DNA from: a virus
Taxonomy: Duplodnaviria; Caudoviricetes
Length of the DNA stretch: 64,000 bases
Reading direction: 5' to 3' (one strand)
IMG/VR virus record: IMGVR_UViG_3300042090_001530
Span: 128,001 to 192,000 of that record
Program-made: the position numbers and the translations under genes
Shown here: positions 2,867 through 60,410 of the stretch, one piece after another
Numbering within the stretch: the first letter of the stretch is position 1
How the letters are laid out: each line of letters opens with the position of its first letter
The notes under the pieces: generated by a model
Told to the model about the DNA's origin: nothing
The model's input: the letters and a program-made list of their open reading frames with translations, nothing else
Database searches by the model: none

Positions 2867-4063
2867 TTACCTTCGCAGGCGCGCTGGTTCCTGCTTCACG
2901 GACCGGCCAACACCGAGGTCTCCACAGGCTGTCACGGCAAGCCCTGCCGCGAGTATGTTCTTCGCCGCGTTCACGTCGGCGTGGTCTCGGTGGCCGCAAG
3001 CCGTGCACGCGAACACCGCTTGGCTCTCACGGCTGTTCGCGTCCACCCGCTTGCACCGATGGCACGTCTGGGACGTGTACGCGGCGGGGACTTTCTTCAC
3101 CCCCGACCCCGTGTAGCGGGCTGCGGAGCGCAGTGCTGTCTCGAACTGGTACCAGCCCTTGTCCAAGATGGCGCGGTTCAGGCCGGACTTCTGCGCGACG
3201 TTGCGGCCCGGGGCGTCGAGCGTGCCGGCCGCGGTCTTGGTCATGTTCCGGGTCTTGAGATCCTCGAGGACGATCAGGGCGTGGTCGCGGGTCAACCCGT
3301 GTGCGGTCTGGGCGCAGAAGTCCGCCCTACGTTCGACCGGCGCCCGGTGCGCCTTCGCGAGCAGGGCCGCGGTCTTCTTCCGGTTGCTCGAGCCGCGCTT
3401 GGACCGGGCGAGTTTCTGCTGCAGCCGACGCCGGTGCTCGAGCTCGCCGGGGGTGGCGAACACCTGGTCGTGCAGGTCGCCGTCCGATGTGGCGGCAGCG
3501 ACCACGACGCCGCGGTCCACACCTACCGCAGTGTCCGGCAGGGCGTGGGTTTCGGCCGGGATCTCGCCGTCTTCGACGAGGAAACTGACGTACCAGTGCC
3601 CGGTCTTGAACGACACCGTCGCGTTGCGGATCACGCCGCCGAGCGGCCGGGACCAGCGGAATTTCACCCAGCCGAACTTTGGAAGCTTGACGCGGGCATG
3701 ACTCCGATTGAGTTGCTCCACCGCCATCCACTTGCCTTCGGAAAGGCGAAACGACGGCTTCCACCGTGTCTTGGAGCGCCAGTGCACGGCGAAGGTGCCG
3801 TGCTTGCGGCACGCCTTGTCCAGGTCCATCAGGGTCTGCTGGAGAACGCAGGACGGCGCCTCGGCGAGCCACGGGAACTCGCGCTTCGCCTCGGCGAGCT
3901 CGGCGGCCTGCTGCTCGTAGTTGATCCACGCGCCGCGCTGCCGGTAGATCCGCCGCTGCTCCAGCGCGGTGTTCCACACGTCCCGGCACGCCGCGCCCAC
4001 CTGCTCCGCATAGGCGACCTGAGCGGGCGTCAACTCCAACCGGTACCGGCGCGCGGTGAGCAT
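2867..4063 (-). CDS. tnpB: TnpB RNA-guided endonuclease, catalytically intact (398 aa)
   Basis: MLTARRYRLEL N-terminus; RuvC-I GVDRG, RuvC-II VLEDL, Zn finger CHRC/CTAC, RuvC-III HADVNAA. Confidence 0.95.
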   Translation of the reverse strand: MLTARRYRLELTPAQVAYAEQVGAACRDVWNTALEQRRIYRQRGAWINYEQQAAELAEAKREFPWLAEAPSCVLQQTLMDLDKACRKHGTFAVHWRSKTRWKPSFRLSEGKWMAVEQLNRSHARVKLPKFGWVKFRWSRPLGGVIRNATVSFKTGHWYVSFLVEDGEIPAETHALPDTAVGVDRGVVVAAATSDGDLHDQVFATPGELEHRRRLQQKLARSKRGSSNRKKTAALLAKAHRAPVERRADFCAQTAHGLTRDHALIVLEDLKTRNMTKTAAGTLDAPGRNVAQKSGLNRAILDKGWYQFETALRSAARYTGSGVKKVPAAYTSQTCHRCKRVDANSRESQAVFACTACGHRDHADVNAAKNILAAGLAVTACGDLGVGRSVKQEPARLRR

Positions 4064-9643: not shown

Positions 9644-12600
9644 CGGCCCGCTCCGCTCCGATCGGCGAATGCAGCAACTCCCGCAGACGCGCAAGAAGTT
9701 GCTCGTTCTCGACCCGGAGTTGCGTGGCGCCCTCGGTTCTGTCCGCCCACCTGAGCTCACGCTCCCACGCGGGCTCGACCTCGGACGGTTCGCCACCGAG
9801 GAACGTGCCGCGTGCGGTGACGGCGCACAGCCAGCTCAGGGCATCTTTCATCTCGCCAGCGGTGGGCGGCTCGTCCATCTGGTCAAGGTGCAGGATCCGC
9901 ATGAGGGTGGCAGTGTCCTCGGCAGGCCATCTTGCGTAGCCCATCCCGTCGCCTGGGTCTTCCTTTTCGACCTGTTCGGCGTTGAGCAGGTAGTACAGGT
10001 GGCGGAAGAACTTCTCGGCGATGTCCCGCTGCCGGTTGGCGTATCCACGCAGGGCGGACGCTTTCATGAAGTCGCTGAACTTGTCGGTTGGGCTACGGGG
10101 ATCGATGTCCGCGTCAGTCACTTGCGCCCTCTTCTCGGCGCGTCGCGGAGCACCGTGTGCGGCTGAACGAGGCTGATTATGTTGCCGAAGATGAGGTCTC
10201 CCAGCCAGCCGCCCGTCAAGTGATACTCGAGCGCATACGCCTTCAACCGCTCGCGGGCGAGCCACGTCTCATCGTCGACCGCGCCGCCCAGTTCGTAGAT
10301 CCTGGCTGCGGTCCACAACCTGTCGAACTCGTCCCCGCCGCGCGGGGGCGCTTCTATGGAGACGCCAGCATCGGCTGCGGCACGCAGCACGCTCGCGGCC
10401 ACGTCGGGCCTCAGGGTGCCGCTCACGGCCGGTCCTTCCGGTGCGGGCTGTCGAGCCGGACGTGCCCGTCGTCGAGCGGCCACGGCCAAGGGCACGTGCA
10501 GCCCTCGGGCGCCCACTGTGCGCGGGCGGTCGGGTGGCCGTCCTGTTCGTCGGCTTCGACGATCCGGGTGACGACGGAGGCGAGGATCGCGTCGGTCACG
10601 GGATCATGCGCCGGCGGCTGGGCAGCTTGCCGTGCAGGTACGACGGGCACGTGTGAGGCGACCGGTGGATGAACGTGCCAGACTCGTGCTGGTAGCAGCC
10701 GGTCGGCCGTTCCGGCGTCTCGGGCGCGTTGCTCTCGGCGGTCTGCGTGTCGGTGGTTTCGTCGCTCATTGAGACTCCTCGGGTGAACTGGTCATTCGTG
10801 CATCCATGGCGGGCAGGAGTGGGGACGCCCATGGATCCAAGATCCATCTACGTGTCGACACCCCGACAGGAACCGCTCGCGTGGCACGGTGGGCATCCGC
10901 ACCCTTGGCGGCGACGGTTGGCGCGCGCTCAACGGCTTCTCGATCTCGACATCCAACTCTCGGGCGATCGCGATCAGGGTTCGGTCCATCGTGAACGGCA
11001 CGTCGCAGGCGTAGCAACTATGCATGATGCCGTCGTTGTCGTGCTCGTCAACTACGGCCGTGACCGCCCGGAGCAGCATGCTGACAGTTGGCTCGTTGCC
11101 GTATTCCAGGCCGTCTTCCAGTTCGGCGAGGCGCTTGCGGATTACGGCTGGCGGCGTAGGCCCGTCGGCTTGCGCGTCGTCGTCTACGCTGTCCGGCTCG
11201 GGCACGGCCGCCATCATGGGGGCTCTCATCCCCGACTTGGCCGGGGCGTCGGCGTTGAAACTCGACTTCACGCCGAGCGCCTCATGCACGAGCGCGGCCA
11301 TGCTCAGGTCCGGGTCGGACGGGGTGCCGTACATGACGATGTTCGACAGGGTCTTGTTCACCGCGTCGCTGGCAGCCCGCTGGACGAGCCGCGCGGCTCG
11401 TTTCGCACTCGGGTTGTCGATCTCGGCTTGGAGTTCCCGGTTGCGTTCGCGGGCGCGGGCGAGTTCCGCGCGCGCCGCCCCGATCTTCGTGGCCATCTCG
11501 CCGTAGGTTCGCTGGTGGCCTTTGATGCGCCGTTGCAGGCTGTCGATCTGCTCGAGCACCCAATCTTCGTGGTATCCCCATTGGTTCAACCAGGGCCATG
11601 CGCCGACGTCGCGGTCGGTCAGCCGGTCCCCCTGCTTAAGATCGGGACCGTGGGAGGTGTCGGCGCAGTCGGGCGGGCAGCCTGCGTAGACGACGATCCA
11701 GGAGAGCGGCGGGAGGGGCTTGAGCGGGTCAGCGACGGCGATGATGTGCCCGCCGTTGGAGCGGCGCACGATCGGCCGGCCGTGCTTGTCCAGGTTCGAC
11801 GGGTGGAGCGGGGCAGGGCCGAGGAGCCCTTCGAAGGTGAGTGGCGGTTGCTGCTGATTGTCTGGCATGGTCACAGTCCCGTGATGATGTTCGAGATGAT
11901 GCCGGTCGGCGCGGTCGTGAACGGCGCGGTGAACATGCTGGAGCGGTAGAACTCGGCGAACCGGTCGACCGTAGGCAGCTTGATGATCTCGAGGTCCCGC
12001 GTGGTGTCGTCGTCGTAGACGAGCCGTAGATGCCGGGCGGCTATGTCGTTGTCCTCGATGACCGGCACGCCCGTGAATGCCGCGGCGCACAGCGGCCCAG
12101 GCTCGGCTTTCGGGAGCGCCGCAGCCAGGTAGGTGACGACGAACCAAGAGCCGCGGAGTTCCCGCAGGACCGGGCCGTGCGCGGCCCGGTGGCGTGCGAG
12201 CCGGTCGAGGAGTTCCGCGGTCGACGGCGGCGCGTCGGGGATGACGTACGACTCGGGCTCGCGGTCGAGCATGATCTCGGCGTACCCGCACACGTACTCG
12301 GTCGCGGCCTGGTCGATGACGGCCTGCGGGTCGGTCGGTGGCCAGACCCGCCACTCGATCGGTTCGCCGGCTGCGGCGGCCTGCATGGCGCGGACGAATC
12401 GCGCCTCGACGTTGAGCCGCCAGATCAGCCGCTCGAACTTGTCGAGCAGCAGCCGGCGGCGCTCGCGGTCCTCAGCGGTCAGCACTTCAGCTCGCTCATC
12501 GCCTTGAGGCAATCATGTCGGCCCTCGCCCTTCCGCTCGGGACAGCCACAGCGCTGGCACAGCGGCCACGCATGCTCGATCGGGCCGTCCTCGCCCCAGA

Positions 12601-13346
12601 CGATGACGGTCGGGTAACGGTCGTACTCGTCGGTCTGATAGCTGAGGACGGTGCCGCGCGGCCACGATTCGGCTTGGATCGCATCGAGCACGCCGAGGTT
12701 CAGCCGGTTGACCGCGATGTGGAACACGATCGAGTTCGAGGCGCGCGTGCCCGTGTTCTCGACCGGCTCGGGCCGGTACGCCTCGGTGCCGCCGCCGAAG
12801 AATCCGATCGGGTACCGCTCGAAGATGTCGGCGAACCTGTCCGCGTGACCGTTGAACGTGGCTGGGATCACGAACACGACGTCAGTGATAGTGCTCACCG
12901 ATCACCCCCGGGGACGTCGCGACCCGGCAGCTCGCCGAGCAGTCCTTGCATCGTCCGCTCGACCAGCGCCGCGAACTCGGCCGGGTCGGACGTCATGACT
13001 TGGGCGTAGACGTCGGCGTCGGCGGTTCGGGACTTGCGGCGCAGCGTGTTACGGAACGGCTCGGACACGAGCACGATGCGCGGAGGCTTCCAGTCGAGCG
13101 GCCAGACCTCCCAGCCGCACGTGTCCTCGATCGCCTCGACGAGCATGTTGTAGGCCTCGGCGTCCATCCAGCCTTCGCCGGTTAGTAGCCAGTACACGTG
13201 GCCGTCATGGCACGACTCGTAGACTTCGCGGACGTTGGTGGGGTTGTCCGGGTCGATGCCGCACTGCTCGAGGAACCCGCGGCCCCAGCCAGGCTCGGGC
13301 GGCCATTGGTCAGGATCGGCATAGGCGGGCTGGGGGATCGCGTCGG

Positions 13347-47373: not shown

Positions 47374-49089
47374 TCAGTTCGTCTTCGTGTTGGTCAGGTG
47401 CGGCCCGATATACCCGACGATCATCTTGCCGGTCAGGCCCTTCGTGTCGTCGAGGAAGTAGACGCGGGGGCTGATTGATCCTCTTCGCTCGATCTGCAGG
47501 TGCGCCTGCATGGTCGTGCTGCCGTCCGGATCCACGTCGCTGGGGACCGGGAAGACGCGTTCGTCGCCCCAGTGGGCCATGGTCGTGTCGGATTCGGACA
47601 TCGCGACCTGCGTGAGCGGCCAGCCTGCGGCGGCGCGTCCGGATCTGCAGTACTGGTAAAAGCCCGCATGGTCTGCATGCGTGGCCGCGTATCCGTCCAG
47701 TGCGCGCAGGCCCTGCCACGTTTTGGCCGCCCACACCCTGGAGCGTTCGTTTTCGTCGAGAGACAGGGCTATCTGCGCGTCGGCGGTCAGCAACACACCC
47801 GTAAGGCCCGCGGCGCGCTCGAGGAGTTCGGCGAACGAGCCTGGGGCTCCCGGCGTGTCGCTGACTGCCGCGGCGTCTGCGTGCCGCCCCTGGGCGTACA
47901 GGAGGCCGCGCAGCACCTCGGCTTCGCCGCGGCCCCGCTCCGCCTCCTCCAGTGCCCACAGAGCCTCTTCCGTGTCCGCGTCGGACTGTCCGGCGAGCAT
48001 GGCGTTCTGCTGCTCGAGCGACGCGATGGCGCGTTGCGAGAGCATGTCGGCGCGGCCGGCCTCACGCAGGTCGTCGTCGGCTTGCTTGAGGAGCGCGGTG
48101 AGGTCGGAGACTTCCTGCTGGAGGGCTTGGGCATCGACTGTGCCGCGCACGAGGTTGATCGCGGCTTGGCGGGCTTCCCGGTGGGCTTCGCCGACCTCCG
48201 GGAACGTGACCGTGCGCAACGCGTCCGGGAGCGGGGCGGCGGTGGCGAGCCGGTGCAGCGTGTTCGGCAGGGACCGCCATGCCGCGTCCGCAGGGTCCGA
48301 TAGTCGCGCGGCGGCGAGGAACCGGTGCCGGGCCGCGTCGGCTGGCCATGCCGGGTCCACGCCGGGATGGAACGTGCGGATCGAGCCGGTGGCGACCCGG
48401 TGGTCTTCGCCGATCTGCTGCCGGAACGCATGGATCGCATCCTGGTCGGCGAGCAGGTAGAGGGATGCGGCGCCAGCGCACAGCGGCATCGCGCGTTGCA
48501 TACGGTCCGACCAGACCGGTTCCGGGCTGAACGGGCGCGCCGCCACCAGCGCGGGTTTACGCCGGTCCGGGTCGCAGAGGATTTCCACGAGATCGGCCAC
48601 GTCGTACTGGCTGATCTCCTGGGTGCCGCGGGTGAGTTTCGCGGGCCCGTCTTTGGGCTGGAGCGCGGCGACGAGGGAGCGGATCAGGGCGGGCCAGCCG
48701 GGGGTGACGAGCGTGCCGGGGTTCGGGAACGCCTCGAGGCCGACGGCGACGTGCATGGCACCGTTGTCGGCGACTGCGGTGACGGTGGTGCGCCAGGTCG
48801 CGTCCGTGTTCTCTTCGCGCAACTGGAGCCGGATCGCTGCTTCGGCGCCGGCCGGGTTGTAGACGACCTGGTTGATGAGGGTCGCGGTGTCGGTCAGGGC
48901 GTGGTGGCCCGGGGCGAGTGGGGCCTGGTAGTTCTTGCCCGCGAGCCATTCGGCGGTGACCGAGCGCGTCTTGCTGAATGCGTCGGGGTTGCGGGTGGTG
49001 AACGTGGCGCGGTGCGCGAGCGGTCTGTCGGGGTCGCCCGTCGGGGTCGTCGGGGCTAGATCGGCAGGAAGGTGGCTAACCGCGGTCAT
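47374..49089 (-). CDS. Large unknown protein with coiled coil and possible C-terminal RelE-like/toxin domain
   Basis: ATG 49089; heptad region QQEVSDLTALLKQ; ends HLQIERRGSISPRVYFLDD...IVGYIGPHLTN. Confidence 0.6.
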   Translation of the reverse strand: MTAVSHLPADLAPTTPTGDPDRPLAHRATFTTRNPDAFSKTRSVTAEWLAGKNYQAPLAPGHHALTDTATLINQVVYNPAGAEAAIRLQLREENTDATWRTTVTAVADNGAMHVAVGLEAFPNPGTLVTPGWPALIRSLVAALQPKDGPAKLTRGTQEISQYDVADLVEILCDPDRRKPALVAARPFSPEPVWSDRMQRAMPLCAGAASLYLLADQDAIHAFRQQIGEDHRVATGSIRTFHPGVDPAWPADAARHRFLAAARLSDPADAAWRSLPNTLHRLATAAPLPDALRTVTFPEVGEAHREARQAAINLVRGTVDAQALQQEVSDLTALLKQADDDLREAGRADMLSQRAIASLEQQNAMLAGQSDADTEEALWALEEAERGRGEAEVLRGLLYAQGRHADAAAVSDTPGAPGSFAELLERAAGLTGVLLTADAQIALSLDENERSRVWAAKTWQGLRALDGYAATHADHAGFYQYCRSGRAAAGWPLTQVAMSESDTTMAHWGDERVFPVPSDVDPDGSTTMQAHLQIERRGSISPRVYFLDDTKGLTGKMIVGYIGPHLTNTKTN

Positions 49090-49306
49090 GGTTGTCGACT
49101 CTCGGCCGGTTCCGGCAGTGGTGAGATTGCGCGCATGGGGTCCTCCTGGCTGGGGGCTGGGTGGCACGGCTTGCGGGCCGCGTGACGCCCGATGTTCGGC
49201 TGATCTGCCGCTATACCCATTGTTGCGCAACGTGCTGACAATTTCAGGGCGACGGTGTCACTGCAGCGGTCGCCTGAGGCACGGGAAAAGCCGCTGCATC
49301 CAGCGG

Positions 49307-49561: not shown

Positions 49562-49604
49562 GCAGGGCGTCGTGGTCGCTACAGGCGGGTGCGGCGCCCC
49601 GCTT
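49562..49604. terminator. Bidirectional hairpin terminator, copy B
   Basis: GGGCGTCG...CGGCGCCCC; abuts the cas2 stop. Confidence 0.55.
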
Positions 49605-49912
49605 CACCGTCCCGGCCCGTCCGGTTCCGCCGGGTTGAGCGCGATCAGTGCGAGGCCGTCCAGGTCGACGGGAGCGCGTCGACTCTCGCCGGCCGTCTGG
49701 ATCGCGAAGCGCTGTTCGGTGTCGGCGGCGTGGACGAGTACGGCACTGCCGTCGCCGACCGACGCGGCGATCACTGCCCACAGTTCGTCGCGGACCTTCG
49801 CGGACAGCGTCCCCACGTACAGGCCGGGCGTAGGTTCGAGCATCCAACGGCTCAGGGCGCCGCGGACGTGCGGCGCGACTGCGGTCGCGCTGATGACGGT
49901 CAGGTTGCTCAC
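49604..49912 (-). CDS. cas2: Type I-E Cas2
   Basis: LTVISATAVAPHVRGALSRWMLEPTPGLYVGTLSAKVRDELW; GTGA overlap with the cas1 stop. Confidence 0.93.
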   Translation of the reverse strand: MSNLTVISATAVAPHVRGALSRWMLEPTPGLYVGTLSAKVRDELWAVIAASVGDGSAVLVHAADTEQRFAIQTAGESRRAPVDLDGLALIALNPAEPDGPGR

Positions 49913-50910
49913 GGCCCGTCCTGCCCTCGGCCGTGGTTGGTGCCGCTCGGTACCGAACCGGCTTCCGGGTCCCAGAGTTCGAATGCGTTGGCCAGTTCGA
50001 CATTGCCTGCGGGTTCGATCCCCGGTTCGAACAGGCGCTGGATGTCGCGGACGATGTTCGGCATGAGCCGGAACAGGGTCAGTCCGCGCCGGAACGCGCG
50101 CCTGGCGTCGCCTTCGGGGTCTTCGGATGCGTGCAGGGTGAACGCGAGCGGGATGGTGAGTTCGGCCTTGTACAGGTCGGCGATGTCGTACACGAACGCG
50201 TGGCTGGTGCCGGCGTGTACGAATCCGAGGCCGGGGGAGCAGCCGAGCGCGGTGATCGCGGCGTGGACGATGCCGTACAGGCACTGGTTGGCTGCGGTCA
50301 GGGCGGCGTTGACGGGGTCTTGGCTTTCCCAGTCTTCGGGGTTGTAGGAGCGGCGGAACGCGTGCAGGCCGTGCTGTTTGGCGAGGCGCCTGTAGAGGGA
50401 TTTCATCTGCCAGCCTTCCAGCCCGCGGAGCGTGCCCAGTTTGACGCCGTCGGGCAGTTGCCCTTCCGCAGTGGGGAACCGGTGGGCGTACATGCGTTTG
50501 GCGACCGTGAGCCGCTTGGCGGGGTCGGCCCAGGCGGCTGCCTGCTTTTCGAGCCAGCGGCTCGACCGGCTGGACGGGGTGATCGCGGCGTAACAGCGGA
50601 CGGTGCCCCAGCCGGTGAACACGATGGTGGTGCCGTGTCTGGCGAGGGTGGCGACTGCGGGGTTGGTGATGGAGGTTCCGGGGCCGAGGAGCAGGCAGCT
50701 GATGGCGGCGGTGGGGATGCGGAGGCGGCGTGTCGGGGCGCCGACGGCGGGGAATGCGAGGACGCCTGTGTCGTCTTGGGTGATGCGCATGAGGTCGAGG
50801 AACAGGAACGAGAGGCTGTCGCCGACGCGTGGGAGCATGGCTGCGGTGGGTGCGGCGATGCGGCGTCGGGCTTGCTGGGTGTTGGGTTGGGGTTGGTTCT
50901 CTGGGTGCAT
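49909..50910 (-). CDS. cas1: Type I-E Cas1, catalytic residues intact
   Basis: LPRVGDSLSFLFLD, LLLGPGTSIT, LRGLEG (E), LGFVH (H), FVYDIADLYK (D); likely ATG 50910. Confidence 0.95.
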   Translation of the reverse strand: MHPENQPQPNTQQARRRIAAPTAAMLPRVGDSLSFLFLDLMRITQDDTGVLAFPAVGAPTRRLRIPTAAISCLLLGPGTSITNPAVATLARHGTTIVFTGWGTVRCYAAITPSSRSSRWLEKQAAAWADPAKRLTVAKRMYAHRFPTAEGQLPDGVKLGTLRGLEGWQMKSLYRRLAKQHGLHAFRRSYNPEDWESQDPVNAALTAANQCLYGIVHAAITALGCSPGLGFVHAGTSHAFVYDIADLYKAELTIPLAFTLHASEDPEGDARRAFRRGLTLFRLMPNIVRDIQRLFEPGIEPAGNVELANAFELWDPEAGSVPSGTNHGRGQDGP

Positions 50911-51003
50911 CCGTTGTTGATAGCGCGGTTTCGCAGAGGGCTGAATGCTTGTCGCACGAACGAGTGACGTGTCGATGTTCGGCCGGTCCGGATGAGGATC
51001 TCC

Positions 51004-51460
51004 CGATCTTCCCGTGCGCTCGCGGGCCAGACCCTGGATGAAGAGGCGTCCGCGCGACCCCGACAGATCTTCCCGTGCGCTCGCGGGCCAGACCCGACGG
51101 CTCGTCATCGTCCGGCAGTGCCCTTAGATCTTCCCGTGCGCTCGCGGGCCAGACCGGAACTCGCGGCGGCCGGAGTGGTGGACGGCAGATCTTCCCGTGC
51201 GCTCGCGGGCCAGACGCGTCATCCGGCAGATAAACTCGGCCCCGTTGAGATCTTCCCGTGCGCTCGCGGGCCAGACCTGATCGGGGTGCGATCAGTCCTG
51301 CGCATTGCTAGATCTTCCCGTGCGCTCGCGGGCCAGACTGCCGCCGTCGCCGCGGAGACCGCTGCGGAGAAGATCTTCCCGTGCGCTCGCGGGCCAGACT
51401 CTCGGTCACCTGGTCGAGGTAGCCTTCGGCGAGATCTTCCCGTGCGCTCGCGGGCCAGAC
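51004..51460 (-). CRISPR. CRISPR array: 8 repeats, 7 spacers (six of 32 nt, one of 33 nt), type I-E-like 61-nt period
   Basis: Repeat on minus strand GTCTGGCCCGCGAGCGCACGGGAAGATCT; forward-strand starts 51004, 51065, 51126, 51187, 51248, 51310, 51371, 51432. The divergent copy is at 51004 (trailer) and an AT-richer leader-like segment is at 51461-51495. Confidence 0.97.
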
Positions 51461-51484
51461 AGTTCGTGGCCAGCGCAAACACTC

Positions 51485-51660
51485 TTGAGTTTTACTCACG
51501 AGTCAAGGGAAGCCGGGGGATCACTCCCCCGAGATGACCCGCCCCGTCGCCGAGACTGGCCTTCCTGCTTCGACAGCGGGGTCGAGAGCCGCCGGTCACC
51601 CGACGGACTTTGCCCACCTCCACAGGCGTTTAGACTCTCCCCGATATCCGAGGCGAGCGG
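51485..51660 (-). ncRNA. omegaRNA-like scaffold overlapping the 3' end of the dead TnpB
   Basis: GGGGAGAGTCTAAACGCCTGTGGAGG...GAAGCAGGAA...GGGGGAGTGATCCCCC hairpin, ending near TCAA (51485-51488), as in TnpB 3' ends. Confidence 0.6.
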
Positions 51661-53283
51661 TACCGCATGGTGCAGGATATTGCGCGCAGCATTGACCTCG
51701 CGGTCAAGCTTCATACCGCACTTGATGTTCCCGCACCGGAAAACCACCTGCGTAAGCGGGATGCTTGGGTCTCGCCATCCACACTTGCAACAGGTCTGAC
51801 TCGACGGCAGGTCCCCGGCCGCAGCCCGGAACCGCGTACCCCACTGCGCCGCCTTGTACTCCAACTGGCGCCGCAACTCGGCAGGCGCCGTGTCCAGGAT
51901 CGCCCGGTTGAAGCCGGCCTTCACCTTCACGTCGCTGCCGGGCGCCTCGACGGTGCCCTTCGCGGACCCGGTCATCTGCCGGACATTCAGGTCGCGGACA
52001 GCGATCTCCGGATAGTTGATCGCTATGCTCGCGGAGATCTGGTTCAGGGTGCCGCGCCGCGCCTCCGCAGTCCGATGATGCACGCGGCCGAGCCGCCTGA
52101 CCGCCTTGGCACGGTTCGCCGACTGCGCCTGACCGCGCACGAACGGCTTACGCGCCACAGCCTGCGACGCCTTCACCAAAGCCCGCTTGTGCCTCTTGCC
52201 GTACCGAGGATTCTCATACGCAGTCTCGTCCGACAGGGCGACCAGGGTACGAACACCCCACTCGACGCCGACGGCCGGGCGCATCCGCTGCCGTTCCTTG
52301 GAGACCTTCTGCCGGGCCCGGGAGACCTCCTCGCGGTGCCGCATCGCCTCCGGGGACAGTTCGCACAGCACCGACGCGTACCAGCGGGAGCCGCCCCGGG
52401 AGATCGTCACCGACTTGACCACCGCGTGGCCCCGGTCGATCAGCCGCGCGAGGGGCTTGCAGGACTCGAACAGCCGGACCGAACCGATCCGCGGCACGTT
52501 CAGCCGGCGGTGTCCGTCGGGCCGGATCGACGGGTTGTGCACATCGTGGAACAGGGTGAACGAGTCGGTCGAGCGGCCCTTCTTCTTAAACCGGGGCCTG
52601 CCCATCGCCCGGCCGACCCTGGCCCCGGTGCGCGACGCCATCCAGTTCTGCATCGCCGCCTGGGCGCGGTCGAAGCCGTTGGTGAAGCAGTACACGGAGA
52701 CTTCGGGATGCCACGGGGAGCCGCCGTCTGCGGCGTCCTGGTCGCGGATTTCGCGCCACATGGTGGTGCAGTCCATCGCGGACGGGATCGCGTCGCCGCG
52801 CTCGAATCGGGCCTTCTTGAACTGCAGCACCTCGCGGCGCACGGCAGCGAGTCGCTCCTTGATCTCCAGCAGGTCGGGGCGCGTCTTGTCCTTGACTGCG
52901 GCCATCAGGGCTTTGCGCTCGTCGTCGAGCCGTTTGGTGTCGGCGGCCAACTCGGCGGCCTCGGCTTTGAGGATCGGCCGGGCCTGCTTGTCCCACTGCT
53001 TGATCCGCTCGCCGCGCACCTGGGCCGTCCACGCAGCGGTGGACTTCTCGTCCAGGCCGTCGGGCGGCTGCGGCATCGGCCCGGCGATCCGGGTGATGAC
53101 CTCGTCGCGGCGCGCCTCCCAGGCGAGTTGGGCTTGGGACATCCATGCGATGCCGCGGTTGGTGGCCCACCGGGTGGCGCCAGCATGCCGGGCGAAGTCG
53201 GCGAGTTGGGCTTGGGTTGGGTCGAGGGCGAACCGATAGGCGCGCAGAACTGGCGCGGGCGCTTCGGTTTCAGCGGTGGCCAT
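51496..53283 (-). CDS. tnpB: CRISPR-adjacent TnpB/Cas12-like protein, RuvC-inactivated (595 aa)
   Basis: LRAYRFALDPT HTH, RPRFKKKG, Zn finger CCKC/CGNIKC; RuvC-I GVEWG (D>E341), RuvC-II AVRDL (E>R430), RuvC-III DREVNAA (D>E529). Confidence 0.9.
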   Translation of the reverse strand: MATAETEAPAPVLRAYRFALDPTQAQLADFARHAGATRWATNRGIAWMSQAQLAWEARRDEVITRIAGPMPQPPDGLDEKSTAAWTAQVRGERIKQWDKQARPILKAEAAELAADTKRLDDERKALMAAVKDKTRPDLLEIKERLAAVRREVLQFKKARFERGDAIPSAMDCTTMWREIRDQDAADGGSPWHPEVSVYCFTNGFDRAQAAMQNWMASRTGARVGRAMGRPRFKKKGRSTDSFTLFHDVHNPSIRPDGHRRLNVPRIGSVRLFESCKPLARLIDRGHAVVKSVTISRGGSRWYASVLCELSPEAMRHREEVSRARQKVSKERQRMRPAVGVEWGVRTLVALSDETAYENPRYGKRHKRALVKASQAVARKPFVRGQAQSANRAKAVRRLGRVHHRTAEARRGTLNQISASIAINYPEIAVRDLNVRQMTGSAKGTVEAPGSDVKVKAGFNRAILDTAPAELRRQLEYKAAQWGTRFRAAAGDLPSSQTCCKCGWRDPSIPLTQVVFRCGNIKCGMKLDREVNAARNILHHAVPLASDIGESLNACGGGQSPSGDRRLSTPLSKQEGQSRRRGGSSRGSDPPASLDS

Positions 53284-58009: not shown

Positions 58010-60379
58010 TCATGCGGCGGTTCGGGCCTTGAGCATCAGGCCCATCACTTCGGCTGCCGCGGCCTGCTCCGAGAACGCGTCGCCCGCGTTCCCGTCCAGC
58101 ACTGCGGCTGTGATCGAACGCTTTCCGGAGACGACCTGCCACATGTACTCGTCCACCGTGCCCTCGGCGAGGAACACCGGGAAGTCGACGGGTCGGGTCT
58201 GGCCGATCCGGTGCATGCGCGCCGCCATCTGCTCGATCTCCGCCCACGTCCACGGCACCTCCGCCATCGCCCCGTGCGCCGCAGCGGTGAGCGTGTGGCC
58301 GACGCCGCCGGCCTGCGTGGAGACTGCGATCACCGGGGCCTTGCGGGCGGGCAGCGACTGGAACGCGGCCTTGTCCGCCTCGACGGACTCGGTGGACTGT
58401 CCGCCCTGGATCCGCAGGCCGGTGAACGTGGCCGCGTAGTGGTCGACGACCGGCCGGTGGTGCGCGGCCACCATGACCTTCTCGCCACGGGCCGTGAGCT
58501 TCTTCACGTGCCGCGTCACGGTGGCGGTCTTGACGTTCCCGACGAGTTGCCGCAGCAGGTTCAGGCGCACCAGCACTTCCGCGGACATGGCCTTGCGGCA
58601 GAACTGGTCGCGGGCGACCGCGTCGGACAGGTCGATGCCGCGCGACTCGGCGAGCTCGATCAGTGCGGCGAGGAAGTCATCCTCCGCACTCCGGTAGGCG
58701 GCCATCGCTTTCGCATTCACGGCGTCCGGGCCGAGCCACTCCGGGCGGATCGTGAGCTGCGGCAGGTTCAGTGCACTGTCGCCGCGGCGCAGGTAGATCC
58801 CGGCCGAGCGCAGCTTCAAGTGCAATTCCTCGAGGTTGGAGGCGCCGTCGAACGTGGTGCCCCACTCGCCCGCCTGCGGGCCGCAGTACCGGTATTTGAA
58901 CGGCCACTCGCCGCCCATGTCCTCCAGGCGCCCGAGGATCCGCAGCTGCTGGAGTAGCTCCTTGGGTCGGTTGACGATCGCCGTGCCCGTCAGGCACAGC
59001 ACGAGTCCGCCGCGGCCGGCGACGTGCGTGCCGAGCGTCTCCATGGCCTGAGAGCGGGCGGCGGCGGCCTCCTTGCCGAAGTGCGACTCGTCCACGATCA
59101 GCGCCTTCGGGTTCAGCTTCACCAGGGCCTTGGCCCATCCGGCGCGGTTGCGCTTCGCGCCGTCCACCGTGGCCTTGTACGTCTCCTTGAGCACATCGAA
59201 CCCGATGACCACGACGTGCGTCCCGGGCGGGACCGGGGTCGGGGCGTTGCCGGAGGCGACGAACACGCGCCGGTCGGGGAAGAACTTCGCGACCTCGGCC
59301 AGCCAGTTCAGCCGCAGCGACGTCTTGCACACGATCACTGCGGGCCAGGCGTCGTCCACTGCGACGGCGGCAAGGGACAGCAGGGTCTTGCCGAGGCCCA
59401 TCTTGTCGCCGATCAGTACCTGTCGGTTCGCGGCGATGAACTCGAGGCCCGCGTGCTGGTGCGGCTTCAACGTGCCCGCGAGGCCCGGAACGGTGATCTC
59501 GCCGCGCCCTGGGGAGAGGGCGATCGATGCGCACAGGTTGTACGCCTCGCGCTCCACGGCCCCGCCGGCAGCCTCACGCACGTCCTGCGCCACGCGCAGC
59601 CCGCGGGCGTCCGCGAGTGCCAGGGCCTCCGGGATCGAGCCCTGGGGGACTGTCCAGGCCCCGGACGGCTTGTCCCAGCGGCGACCGGGGATCGCACGGA
59701 CCTCATCGAGGACGCCGCTACCGGGGTACGTGTCGAAGCGGATCGCGATCGACCCGTCGTCGGTGAACGCGACGTTCGGCTCGGTCGGGGTCTCGGGCAC
59801 GACGGGCGCGGGCGGGTTGTCGGCCAGCTGCTCGACCTCCGGGTCCACGGGGATGCCGTGGGTGCGGGCGAACTCGCGCACCTGCGGCGCGGAGGACGGC
59901 GGGTACAGGTTCACCTTCGACCGGGCGCCGAACTCGGCGCGGTACGCGCGGCCGGGGATCTGCTTGGTGGCCTCGACCATGTCCGGGTCGTACGGGAAGC
60001 CGAGCACGATCACGGGCTGGCCGCCATTGGTCGCGGTCTCGCAGAACGAGAGGGCGGCGATGCGCTCCGCGTCGCGCTGTGCCTGGCGCCGCCCGGTCAG
60101 GGTGTCGCGCACCTGAGCTTCGGGATCCTCGGGCACCGGCAGGTCCTCGAACTCGATCCCGGCGGCGGCCAGCTGGCCGCGGTAGATGCGGGCGAGCTGG
60201 TAGGCGCCGACCGCTGCGTCCTCGTCCCACAGGGCGGCGGGGATCGAGGCGAGGTAGTGGCCGAGCGGGACGTCCCCGGCGTTGAAGCCGCGCCCGTCAT
60301 CCTCGCGCGCTCCGTCGCACTGCCCGGCGATCACGCCGATGGCCTCGGCGAGAGGGCTCCAGTCCAGCTTCGTCATCAT
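58010..60379 (-). CDS. SNF2-family (HARP/SMARCAL1-like) helicase
   Basis: LKPHQ, GDKMGLGKT, DESH, LTGTAIVN, QMAARMHRIGQ; N-terminal HARP-like RRWDKPSGAW; GAGGAG RBS before ATG 60379. Confidence 0.9.
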   Translation of the reverse strand: MMTKLDWSPLAEAIGVIAGQCDGAREDDGRGFNAGDVPLGHYLASIPAALWDEDAAVGAYQLARIYRGQLAAAGIEFEDLPVPEDPEAQVRDTLTGRRQAQRDAERIAALSFCETATNGGQPVIVLGFPYDPDMVEATKQIPGRAYRAEFGARSKVNLYPPSSAPQVREFARTHGIPVDPEVEQLADNPPAPVVPETPTEPNVAFTDDGSIAIRFDTYPGSGVLDEVRAIPGRRWDKPSGAWTVPQGSIPEALALADARGLRVAQDVREAAGGAVEREAYNLCASIALSPGRGEITVPGLAGTLKPHQHAGLEFIAANRQVLIGDKMGLGKTLLSLAAVAVDDAWPAVIVCKTSLRLNWLAEVAKFFPDRRVFVASGNAPTPVPPGTHVVVIGFDVLKETYKATVDGAKRNRAGWAKALVKLNPKALIVDESHFGKEAAAARSQAMETLGTHVAGRGGLVLCLTGTAIVNRPKELLQQLRILGRLEDMGGEWPFKYRYCGPQAGEWGTTFDGASNLEELHLKLRSAGIYLRRGDSALNLPQLTIRPEWLGPDAVNAKAMAAYRSAEDDFLAALIELAESRGIDLSDAVARDQFCRKAMSAEVLVRLNLLRQLVGNVKTATVTRHVKKLTARGEKVMVAAHHRPVVDHYAATFTGLRIQGGQSTESVEADKAAFQSLPARKAPVIAVSTQAGGVGHTLTAAAHGAMAEVPWTWAEIEQMAARMHRIGQTRPVDFPVFLAEGTVDEYMWQVVSGKRSITAAVLDGNAGDAFSEQAAAAEVMGLMLKARTAA

Positions 60380-60410
60380 GTCCACTCCTCAACCAGCCTT
60401 TCAGCGTCTA

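Follow-up and report, generated by a model that had tools for sequence, protein, structure and literature searches.

The window, i.e., the whole 64,000-nt stretch of phage DNA that was analysed, holds on its minus strand a TnpB-fold effector gene, a 35-bp gap, an eight-repeat CRISPR array, cas1, and cas2 (Table 1). This order had been claimed in an earlier note on the DNA and was found as claimed, but not the terminator placed after cas2; by scan, none was detected on that strand, where the sole candidate, a GC hairpin, lacks a run of T. The cas2 gene overlaps the cas1 stop in GTGA. The note was also right that no tnpA, Cascade, Cas3, or Cas6 lies near the effector. Cse1, Cas7e, Cas6e, and Cas3-HD profiles (PF09481, PF09344, PF08798, PF18019) gave no match in the whole 202-kb record. 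Among type I-E features, Cas1e and Cas2e were present, and Cascade (Cse1, Cas7e, Cas6e) and Cas3 were absent from it.

Table 1. Features of the type V-N locus, in order of the minus strand.
Feature	Size	Position	Strand	Evidence
Effector gene, Cas12n (type V-N / V-U4) family	595 aa	51496..53283	(-)	ORF, profiles, structure model
Guide-RNA scaffold (tracrRNA / omegaRNA-like), predicted	~200 nt	51461..51658	(-)	covariation, RNA contigs
Linker, stop codon to repeat 1	35 nt	51461..51495	(-)	conserved AACTCAAGAGTG...GCGCTGG motif
CRISPR array	8 repeats x 29 nt, 7 spacers x 32-33 nt	51004..51460	(-)	61-bp period
cas1e	309 aa	49909..50838	(-)	TIGR03638, 322 bits
cas2e	102 aa	49604..49912	(-)	TIGR01873, 76 bits

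The effector was matched by the PADLOC Cas12u4 profile with 477 bits (E 1e-143, residues 4-582 covered) and by RdCas12n (PDB 9J09) at E 1e-60 in the PDB sequence search. The NCBIfam IS607_TnpB profile gave 207 bits, under its cut-off of 350, and the best Foldseek matches of the structure model were TnpB and Cas12 structures. By these matches and the tree, the effector is assigned to the known type V-N (V-U4, Cas12n) family. The earlier note had proposed an independent TnpB-to-Cas12 intermediate. This claim fails because the effector is nested in the Cas12n family, and the canonical nuclease-active members already have arrays of I-E geometry and a tracrRNA within the ORF.

In the alignment, the catalytic residues D287, E386, and D484 of RdCas12n correspond to E341 (codon 52261-52263), R430 (51994-51996), and E529 (51697-51699) of the effector. 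The change of all three RuvC acidic residues, reported before, was therefore confirmed, and the TnpB at 2867-4063 (minus strand), chosen as control, does keep D/E/D. Intact D/E/D was found in three further TnpB genes of the same 202-kb record. The D-to-E changes are conservative, a point counted against a binding-only reading. The effector retains its CCCC zinc finger (C498, C501, C517, C522), and residues 544-595 form a disordered tail in the structure model (pLDDT < 50). The ORF is intact, and its added length was rightly ascribed to a helical insertion; it lies mainly in residues ~60-165, which are missing from 508-aa clade members, and long helices were predicted at 24-67, 79-131, and 138-162. 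With a dN/dS of 0.2-0.5, the gene is judged to be intact and under purifying selection, not decaying.

The E/R/E triad was found in 25 of 25 clade members, at identities down to 46%, and D/E/D in 169 relatives. The E-R-E clade is monophyletic (SH-aLRT 100) and nested beside the A. craniellae (AcCas12n-like) group. All of its sequences come from metagenome and virus contigs, and no member was found in 185,579 species-representative genomes, where the best match was 49% identical (A. craniellae). The RuvC, including the lid, and the TNB are the best conserved regions. An insertion of ~12 aa before RuvC-I is specific to the clade, the subclade of this phage's effector has a helical insertion of ~100 aa, and in a basal subclade the N-terminus bears a He_PIG (Ig-like) domain. 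As judged from this alignment and tree, a monophyletic clade with the RuvC D-E-D invariantly turned into E-R-E is new, unless it is one of the V-U6 to V-U45 groups listed in a survey (PMC10691335). Its home in large tailed actinophages is also new, as is the presence of I-E cas1-cas2 beside the array in one of its subclades.

The array repeats are identical save for the last base of the cas1-proximal repeat; in this locus, as in L028, degenerate repeats are found at that end of the array. The geometry, i.e., 29-nt repeats and 32-33-nt spacers, is that of type I-E, and the same 61-bp period was seen in all V-N arrays examined. The ~7-bp repeat hairpin for Cas6e is degenerate, with -8.7 kcal/mol in this array and values from -1.8 to -10 in the other clade members, compared with -14 to -15 in genuine I-E repeats. 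The phylogeny and synteny check proposed earlier was run, and the array stood directly 3' of the effector gene in all eight clade loci with downstream sequence. The same placement, on the same strand, was found in 42 of 72 canonical D-E-D Cas12n-like loci. The 35-nt linker is the probable leader for spacer integration.

The predicted guide-RNA scaffold spans the final ~160 nt of the effector ORF plus the linker. It comprises several covarying helices and a GUGA-loop hairpin, followed by CUUCCC, whose pairing partner is the GGGAAG of the repeat, in its 3' part. By alignment and RNAalifold of nine loci, 62 pairs were predicted, 21 of them with compensatory changes, and the consensus energy was -59.3 vs -8.9 +/- 3.0 for column shuffles. 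The anti-repeat and the repeat covary across clade loci, and the layout of hairpin and anti-repeat is repeated in the AcCas12n locus. No Rfam family matched the scaffold, RAGATH-type families included, and RNAduplex on single sequences was uninformative for its pairing in such GC-rich DNA. In a wetland metatranscriptome, an RNA contig at 51297-51652 (X4) had a depth of 101, and the three other contigs on 16 kb had ~3. A further RNA contig (X6) lies at 51433-51643. Scaffold and repeats share one RNA contig, though assembled contigs give neither strand nor true ends. Scaffolds of relatives were present in two further metatranscriptomes. A simple scan found no sigma-70-like promoter on the relevant strand.

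Taken together, these data support the array as belonging to the effector, because it is linked to the gene wherever a homologue has downstream sequence, and anti-repeat and repeat covary. The degenerate I-E hairpin of the repeats and the record without Cascade, Cas3, and Cas6e point the same way.

The adaptation genes are assigned by their profiles to class 1, type I-E, in agreement with the earlier note, which had also seen that the Cas1 catalytic residues are intact (E141, H208, D218, D221). The dN/dS of cas1 was 0.13-0.19. Spacer turnover is complete between 94%-identical relatives; no spacer is common to G000 and L007, despite identical Cas2 and a repeat difference of one base. The cas1-cas2 pair is missing from the basal half of the E-R-E clade (L010, L025), so the system is not defined by adaptation genes beside its array. 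Within 6 kb of the canonical Cas12n-like loci, the pair was found in 0 of 72.

The carrier is a 202-kb tailed phage with terminase, portal, and tape-measure genes (CheckV completeness 98%), not an insertion element, and related phage contigs show synteny at this locus. It is an actinophage, with high-GC bacteria as hosts. A Streptomyces-like host is suggested by cas1, which shows ~73% DNA identity to cas1e of a Streptomyces plasmid. Apart from cas1-cas2, no neighbour protein family was common to more than three of the eight clade loci; the constant unit is the effector, scaffold, and array only.

Spacer targets were searched in phage, plasmid, Streptomyces, IMG/VR, and JGI metagenome sequences, and none of the spacers, in this array or in related ones, had a protospacer there. 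No credible match was obtained in 50,697 phage records or in plasmids, and the spacers showed neither self-matches within the 202-kb phage nor cross-targeting among related loci. In 400 Streptomyces genomes, with two candidates per genome scored, there were only partial matches (28/30, 28/31) to ordinary genes. For five spacers, the first 22 nt were scanned against IMG/VR without a match. The JGI scan gave one 22-nt match, which decays to 26/32 without an A-rich flank, i.e., chance level.

Among known systems, the locus is most like those of Cas12n (type V-N, formerly V-U4 / C2c9), e.g., AcCas12n and RdCas12n. The protein is monomer-sized and TnpB-like with a disordered C-terminal tail, a tracrRNA-like scaffold lies in the 3' end of the ORF, and an array of 61-bp period stands directly downstream. 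The tail and the tracrRNA region overlapping the ORF 3' end are described features of Cas12n, which is a D-E-D nuclease cutting dsDNA at 5'-AAN PAMs (PMC12216341). Unlike D-E-D Cas12n, the E-R-E clade resides on phages, and one subclade has cas1e-cas2e.

The nearest functional analogues are binding-only effectors, i.e., Cas12m, Cas12c, and TldR; the earlier note had named Cas12m and TldR. Cas12m (type V-M, formerly V-U1) is likewise a miniature type V effector of ~600 aa with an impaired RuvC, and its DNA binding, which blocks transcription or replication of mobile elements, is the function proposed for the present effector. Cas12m has a separate origin from TnpB, however, and lacks tracrRNA and adaptation genes (PMC10691335, PMC11641405). 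Membership in Cas12m was rejected, as no Cas12m chain was found at E up to 1 in the PDB and 8HHL ranked 17 by fold (TM 0.45). Unlike this effector, Cas12c is large, chromosomal, and from a distant clade, and it has no I-E module; pre-crRNA is processed by its intact RuvC triad. Cas12c (type V-C) was reported to lack DNase activity and to interfere with mobile elements by DNA binding (10.64898/2026.03.26.714355), and its locus keeps cas1 (PMC10691335), which makes it a precedent for a binding-only system still able to adapt.

TldR proteins have a TnpB fold and an inactivated RuvC, repress transcription under RNA guidance, and are in some cases found on prophages (10.1101/2023.11.30.569447; PMC13418256). 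The E/R/E substitutions of the effector are predicted to be of the same inactivating type. However, TldR uses a single fixed guide with a short guide segment, has no CRISPR array or cas1-cas2, adjoins its regulated gene, and shows a poorly conserved lid and an unresolved C-terminal domain (PMC13622181), whereas here there is a seven-spacer array, and nothing is lost from the zinc finger and the lid region. TldR membership was ruled out by the seven different spacers, the spacer turnover in close relatives, and the lack of a neighbour gene conserved across loci. A transposon-borne TnpB (IS200/IS605, IS607) was ruled out by the absence of tnpA, the sub-cut-off IS607_TnpB score, the multi-spacer array, and the phage synteny. 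CasPhi/Cas12j, CasLambda, and, reportedly, Cas12r also combine a compact type V effector with an array on large phages. To our knowledge, adaptation genes are mostly absent from CasPhi and CasLambda. Both are active nucleases of other clades (PMC11641405).

The locus is a phage-borne type V-N locus. The canonical two-metal RuvC site is gone from its effector, which probably acts as an RNA-guided DNA binder, not a cutter. Cleavage by the effector is presumed lost, judging from the triad. A stable RNA, whose presence in RNA libraries is shown, would start in the 3' end of the effector ORF and extend across the first repeats. The ~200-nt scaffold would then fold, CUUCCC would pair with the repeat GGGAAG, and each repeat-spacer unit would be presented as a guide, as supported by the covariation and by the AcCas12n locus, which was characterised by experiment and has this layout too. 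From family membership, the complex is expected to recognise a PAM-flanked protospacer and form an R-loop. With an arginine placed between two glutamates in the metal site, the target would stay bound and uncut, and transcription or replication would be blocked. The I-E Cas1-Cas2 would add 32-nt spacers at the effector-proximal end of the array; this step is drawn from the intact Cas1 catalytic residues, the purifying selection, and the complete spacer turnover in close relatives. The beneficiary would be the ~202-kb actinophage, and the system is probably aimed at mobile elements that compete with it or at functions of the host. A broader proposal, which is offered tentatively and seems slightly less likely to be right than wrong, is that large actinophages possess self-contained adaptive interference without cutting. 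Such a system would combine a dead Cas12n whose metal site is plugged by Glu-Arg-Glu, a one-piece scaffold-array RNA, and captured I-E Cas1-Cas2, and would silence rivals or host defences without DNA breaks. If true, it would be the first nuclease-inactive type V-N branch and the first phage-encoded binding-only CRISPR system able to adapt.

Other readings of the same locus are less probable. E-R-E may be a rearranged functional centre that cleaves target DNA differently, cuts one strand, or processes its own pre-crRNA like the Cas12c RuvC; this is unlikely, although it is the strongest competitor. The three residues are invariant in 25 sequences within the most conserved domains, which fits a remodelled site under selection and possibly a residual or altered activity. 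With the lid and zinc finger also conserved, such a site may be active, e.g., in pre-crRNA processing or nicking, and a Cas6-like processing enzyme is absent from the 202-kb record. Against it, a basic residue in place of the RuvC-II glutamate means a lost metal ligand, and none of the 16 clade-specific positions holds a compensating acidic residue. Every triple substitution of the Cas12/TnpB RuvC triad known to us abolishes DNA cleavage, which was also counted against this reading. Many TnpB/Cas12 branches with "rearranged" sites are nevertheless presumed active in a survey (PMC10691335).

The effector could instead recruit a phage or host factor under guide direction, i.e., a recombinase, a defence protein, or an RNA polymerase factor, and not be a simple roadblock. 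Cas12k and dCas12f-sigmaE bring other factors to the target in this way. L010 and L025 have large serine recombinases and integrases at a distance of a few kb, a HEC-07/NsnC-like candidate defence gene is found 3' of cas2 in this locus, and the He_PIG domain of the basal subclade could mediate protein contacts. The variable neighbourhood of the constant unit speaks against a recruiter, which is considered rather improbable. Much less probable still is that a host type I-E Cascade-Cas3 makes use of the array and cas1-cas2, beside an unrelated decaying TnpB-like insertion, a scenario that the earlier note had itself raised. In its favour, repeats and spacers have the lengths of type I-E, Cas1-Cas2 belongs to that type, such systems are common in actinobacterial hosts, and L009 has cas3 and a canonical I-E array beside a Cas12n-like locus. 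This scenario was rejected by the intact, selected gene with its 25 conserved homologues, the array linkage, the anti-repeat covariation, the degenerate Cas6e hairpin of the repeats, and the shared RNA contig.

Loss of the nuclease has been seen several times in RNA-guided effectors, i.e., in Cas12k, Cas12m, Cas12c, TldR, and dCas12f-sigmaE, and each case exposed a new use of DNA binding. A binding-only E-R-E clade would add an independent case within the branch regarded as the earliest TnpB-to-Cas12 step, with a virus as its carrier and a spacer-capture module of class 1 origin as its partner. Close relatives differ in D-E-D vs E-R-E and in having or lacking cas1-cas2, and offer a clean natural experiment. 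AAG is the PAM selected by I-E adaptation in E. coli. Given this PAM, the AAN PAMs of Cas12n, and the I-E geometry of the V-N arrays, the whole V-N subtype may depend on I-E adaptation. In practice, tool builders would take an interest in a natural DNA binder that is compact and reads an A-rich PAM.

The effector gene, the CRISPR array, cas1 and cas2 were encoded in this order on one strand of the window. This order, the 35-bp gap, the 8 repeats and the triad changes had been described in the earlier note, and were confirmed by ORF prediction, repeat detection and alignment to RdCas12n. The array had a period of 61 bp, and among its repeats only the one nearest cas1 varied, at its last base. 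The Cas1 catalytic residues claimed to be intact, i.e., E141, H208, D218, and D221, were present. A terminator had also been reported 3' of cas2; a simple scan found none on the minus strand.

Features of the phage CRISPR locus (window coordinates, listed in minus-strand order)
Feature	Position	Strand	Assignment
Effector ORF, 595 aa	51496-53283	minus	
Gap between effector and array, 35 bp			
CRISPR array, 8 repeats of 29 nt and 7 spacers of 32-33 nt	51004-51460	minus	
Gap between array and cas1, 165 bp			
cas1, 309 aa	49909-50838	minus	Cas1e, TIGR03638, 322 bits (Pfam/NCBIfam)
cas2, 102 aa	49604-49912	minus	Cas2e (Pfam/NCBIfam); overlaps cas1 stop codon

The whole IMG/VR record, of which the window covers bases 128001-192000, is 202,490 bp long with 68.6% G+C and a CheckV completeness of 98%. 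Among its genes are those for a large terminase, a portal protein with a fused Nudix domain, tail proteins and a tape-measure protein. Therefore, the carrier is a large tailed phage whose host is high in GC, and not an insertion element. The 618-aa ORF that follows cas2 (47374-49230, minus strand) showed no Pfam or PHROG match. It did match two candidate defence families of PADLOC, HEC-07 at E 2e-14 and NsnC at E 1e-7, and the CRISPR locus may thus belong to a small phage defence island. In the related locus L007, a 571-aa ORF with no Pfam match was found a few hundred bases 3' of cas2. A 791-aa SNF2-family helicase (SNF2-related domain and Helicase_C; 58010-60385, minus strand) was encoded approximately 5 kb upstream of the effector. 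Four further TnpB genes, unusually many for a phage genome, were located at 11454-12689, 90703-91434, and 101556-102467 of the full record and at 2867-4063 of the window. The RuvC triad D/E/D was intact in all four, including the last, which the earlier note had used as a control.

In domain search, OrfB_IS605, Cas12f1-like TNB and TnpB helix-turn-helix domains (Pfam) were found in the effector, and the NCBIfam IS607_TnpB score of 207 bits was below the cut-off of 350. The closest solved structure by sequence was 9J09 (E 1e-60), i.e., RdCas12n, the type V-N (V-U4) nuclease of Rothia dentocariosa, and E341, R430, and E529 of the effector aligned to its catalytic D287, E386, and D484. The PADLOC Cas12u4 profile covered residues 4-582 with 477 bits. 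The AlphaFold model (mean pLDDT 82.7) showed long N-terminal helices and a disordered tail at 544-595, and its top fold matches were IS607 and ISDra2 TnpB, Cas12p, Cas12f, and RdCas12n. Cas12m ranked only 17 by fold, and no Cas12m chain was among the sequence matches to solved structures.

A search of 5.8 billion proteins recovered 24 close homologues (46-94% identity), every one from a metagenome or virus assembly. E/R/E was found in all 24 and in the window's protein, and D/E/D in 169 more distant relatives. A maximum-likelihood tree of 93 sequences placed all E-R-E proteins in one clade (SH-aLRT 100; stem length 0.49), which is nested within the Cas12n family, in the part containing the Actinomadura craniellae protein. 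By descent, the locus belongs to the type V-N lineage, although the defining catalytic feature of that family is absent from it, and the label of a new variant suits it best. The features read earlier were right and the functional analogy drawn from them was reasonable, but the proposed independent TnpB-to-Cas12 intermediate is contradicted by this nesting, on which the Cas12u4 profile, 9J09 and the tree agree. The clade was further marked by an insertion of approximately 12 residues right before RuvC-I and by a few single positions, none of which added a new acidic residue. No member was found in 185,579 species-representative genomes, in which the top match was 49% identical. No published description of the clade was found in the literature, the V-U groups in the PMC10691335 supplement not being covered.

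The sister group is a Streptomyces/Kitasatospora clade with D-E-H or D-E-R, mostly without arrays. Its members (L033-L035, L039, L040, L045, L047, L050, L053-L055, L083, L095, and L096; proteins P0034, P0037, and P0052) are Cas12n-like proteins of 560-600 aa on chromosomes of Streptomyces, Kitasatospora, and Catellatospora. The RuvC-III aspartate is replaced in them (motif RHEN), and the downstream array was missing in 13 of 14. This clade, too, may have been exapted or rearranged. Within the E-R-E clade, the effectors of the basal members P0020, P0022, P0023, and P0025 (locus L010:8001-10226) have a He_PIG domain (Ig-like, PF05345) fused to their N terminus.

With arginine replacing the RuvC-II glutamate, a metal ligand is lost, and the flanking glutamates could pair with R430. 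For these reasons, the effector has probably lost DNA cleavage and retained RNA-guided binding, like Cas12m, Cas12c, and TldR. Because the three residues are invariant, an altered activity of the E-R-E site is possible. An alternative named earlier was that the effector gene is a decaying insertion beside an array used by a host Cascade. Decay conflicts with dN/dS values of 0.2-0.5 for the effector, best conserved in its RuvC and TNB regions, and with the conservation of the 25 clade sequences. For cas1, dN/dS was 0.13-0.19.

In the second half of that alternative, the array, which keeps the I-E repeat length, would serve a Cascade of the host. No Cas7e, Cas6e, Cse1, or Cas3 HD domain was detected in the 202-kb record, which extends the earlier observation that Cascade, Cas3 and Cas6 are lacking nearby. 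Genuine I-E repeats form a hairpin of 6-7 bp at -14 to -15 kcal/mol. This hairpin has been lost in the E-R-E clade, whose repeats gave inconsistent pairs and energies of -1.8 to -10 kcal/mol. Across the clade, the DNA sequence was conserved in the last ~160 nt of the effector ORF and in the linker, and this held for a D-E-D relative with 40% protein identity too. RNAalifold predicted 62 pairs in this scaffold, i.e., the putative guide RNA, 21 of them with compensatory changes, at a consensus energy of -59.3 kcal/mol versus -8.9 +/- 3.0 for column shuffles. It ends in a hairpin with a GUGA or GUAA loop; the CUUCCC after this hairpin pairs with GGGAAG of the repeat's 3' part, and this pairing covaries between loci. 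At the AcCas12n locus the hairpin recurs, together with an anti-repeat that fits the repeat there (CGCUCCC with GGGAGCG), and the published Cas12n tracrRNA, lying inside the ORF, fits this placement. No Rfam family matched the scaffold.

Contigs of four metatranscriptome runs, which give neither strand nor true RNA ends, covered the same region. In X4 (wetland), one 376-nt contig at depth 101 was identical to 51297-51652 and ran from the ORF end through the linker into repeats 1-3, its spacers being those of the window, with adapter at the 51652 end; the remainder of the 16-kb stretch had only three short contigs at depth ~3. In X6, a wetland run of a different study code, the sole contig on the stretch was 51433-51643. 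The leaf-litter run X8 and the rhizosphere run X9 each gave a contig of ~200 nt, 95% identical over 51471-51572 and continuing into different repeat-like sequence; these are scaffolds of relatives. The lack of the I-E hairpin and of Cascade genes, the covariation of anti-repeat and repeat, and one RNA contig extending over both scaffold and repeats argue that the array is used by the type V effector and not by a host Cascade.

Linkage of gene and array was general: an array of 61-bp period begins ~30-160 bp past the effector stop in every clade locus with downstream sequence, i.e., the window, L007, L028, L025, L027, L010, L008, and L026, the last two contigs ending within the first repeats. 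Among these clade loci, homologues without array linkage, which would have spoken against the earlier reading, were therefore not seen. The proposed search for the same synteny recovered cas1-cas2 3' of the array in four cases of this monophyletic clade, i.e., the window, L007, the 122-kb contig of P0007, and L028. They were absent from L010 and L025 of the basal subclade, where an array follows the gene in both; of these two basal loci with enough downstream sequence, L010 carries the He_PIG domain and L025 does not. Among D-E-D relatives from actinobacterial genomes and virus contigs, 42 of 72 had a downstream array, and none of the 72 had cas1e or cas2e within 6 kb. All 22 arrays examined in these relatives, the AcCas12n locus included, had the 61-bp period. 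Therefore, the I-E-like array is an ancestral trait of the family, and the adaptation module adjoining it is special to part of the E-R-E clade. Except for cas1-cas2, no neighbour protein family was common to more than 3 of 8 loci, and the flanks were phage-like, with many small ORFs without Pfam match, integrases, and DUF7873.

In L028 (9397-10410), the cas2 alignment spans only 84 of 102 residues and is directly followed by a 242-aa TnpB fragment on the opposite strand; this cas2 looks clipped by an IS insertion. On the 140-kb contig L009 (1-3400 and 8001-10360), Cas12n-like and I-E systems are adjacent: the D-E-D relative P0026 (607 aa) has its own 8-repeat array, and 6 kb away are a type I-E cas3 and a canonical I-E array with a different repeat.

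Because the degenerate repeats of the window and L028 lie at the array end nearest cas1, new spacers should enter beside the effector gene, at the conserved linker. The window's phage and L007 share no spacers; their effectors are 94% identical, their Cas2 proteins identical, and their repeats differ at one base. For related strains in two soil metagenomes, the assembly breaks exactly at the array. Both observations would fit active spacer turnover. No spacer targets were found in the phage itself, cultured phages, plasmids, 400 Streptomyces genomes, IMG/VR, JGI metagenomes, or the related loci. In X2 and X3, soil metagenomes of one study, a contig (757 nt in X2) matched spacer 2 (51340-51371) at 31 of 32 positions. 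The match is flanked on one side by a degenerate-repeat-like sequence with 5 nt missing and on the other by a repeat-like stretch, and could be the decayed array of a relative sharing this spacer, or a protospacer.
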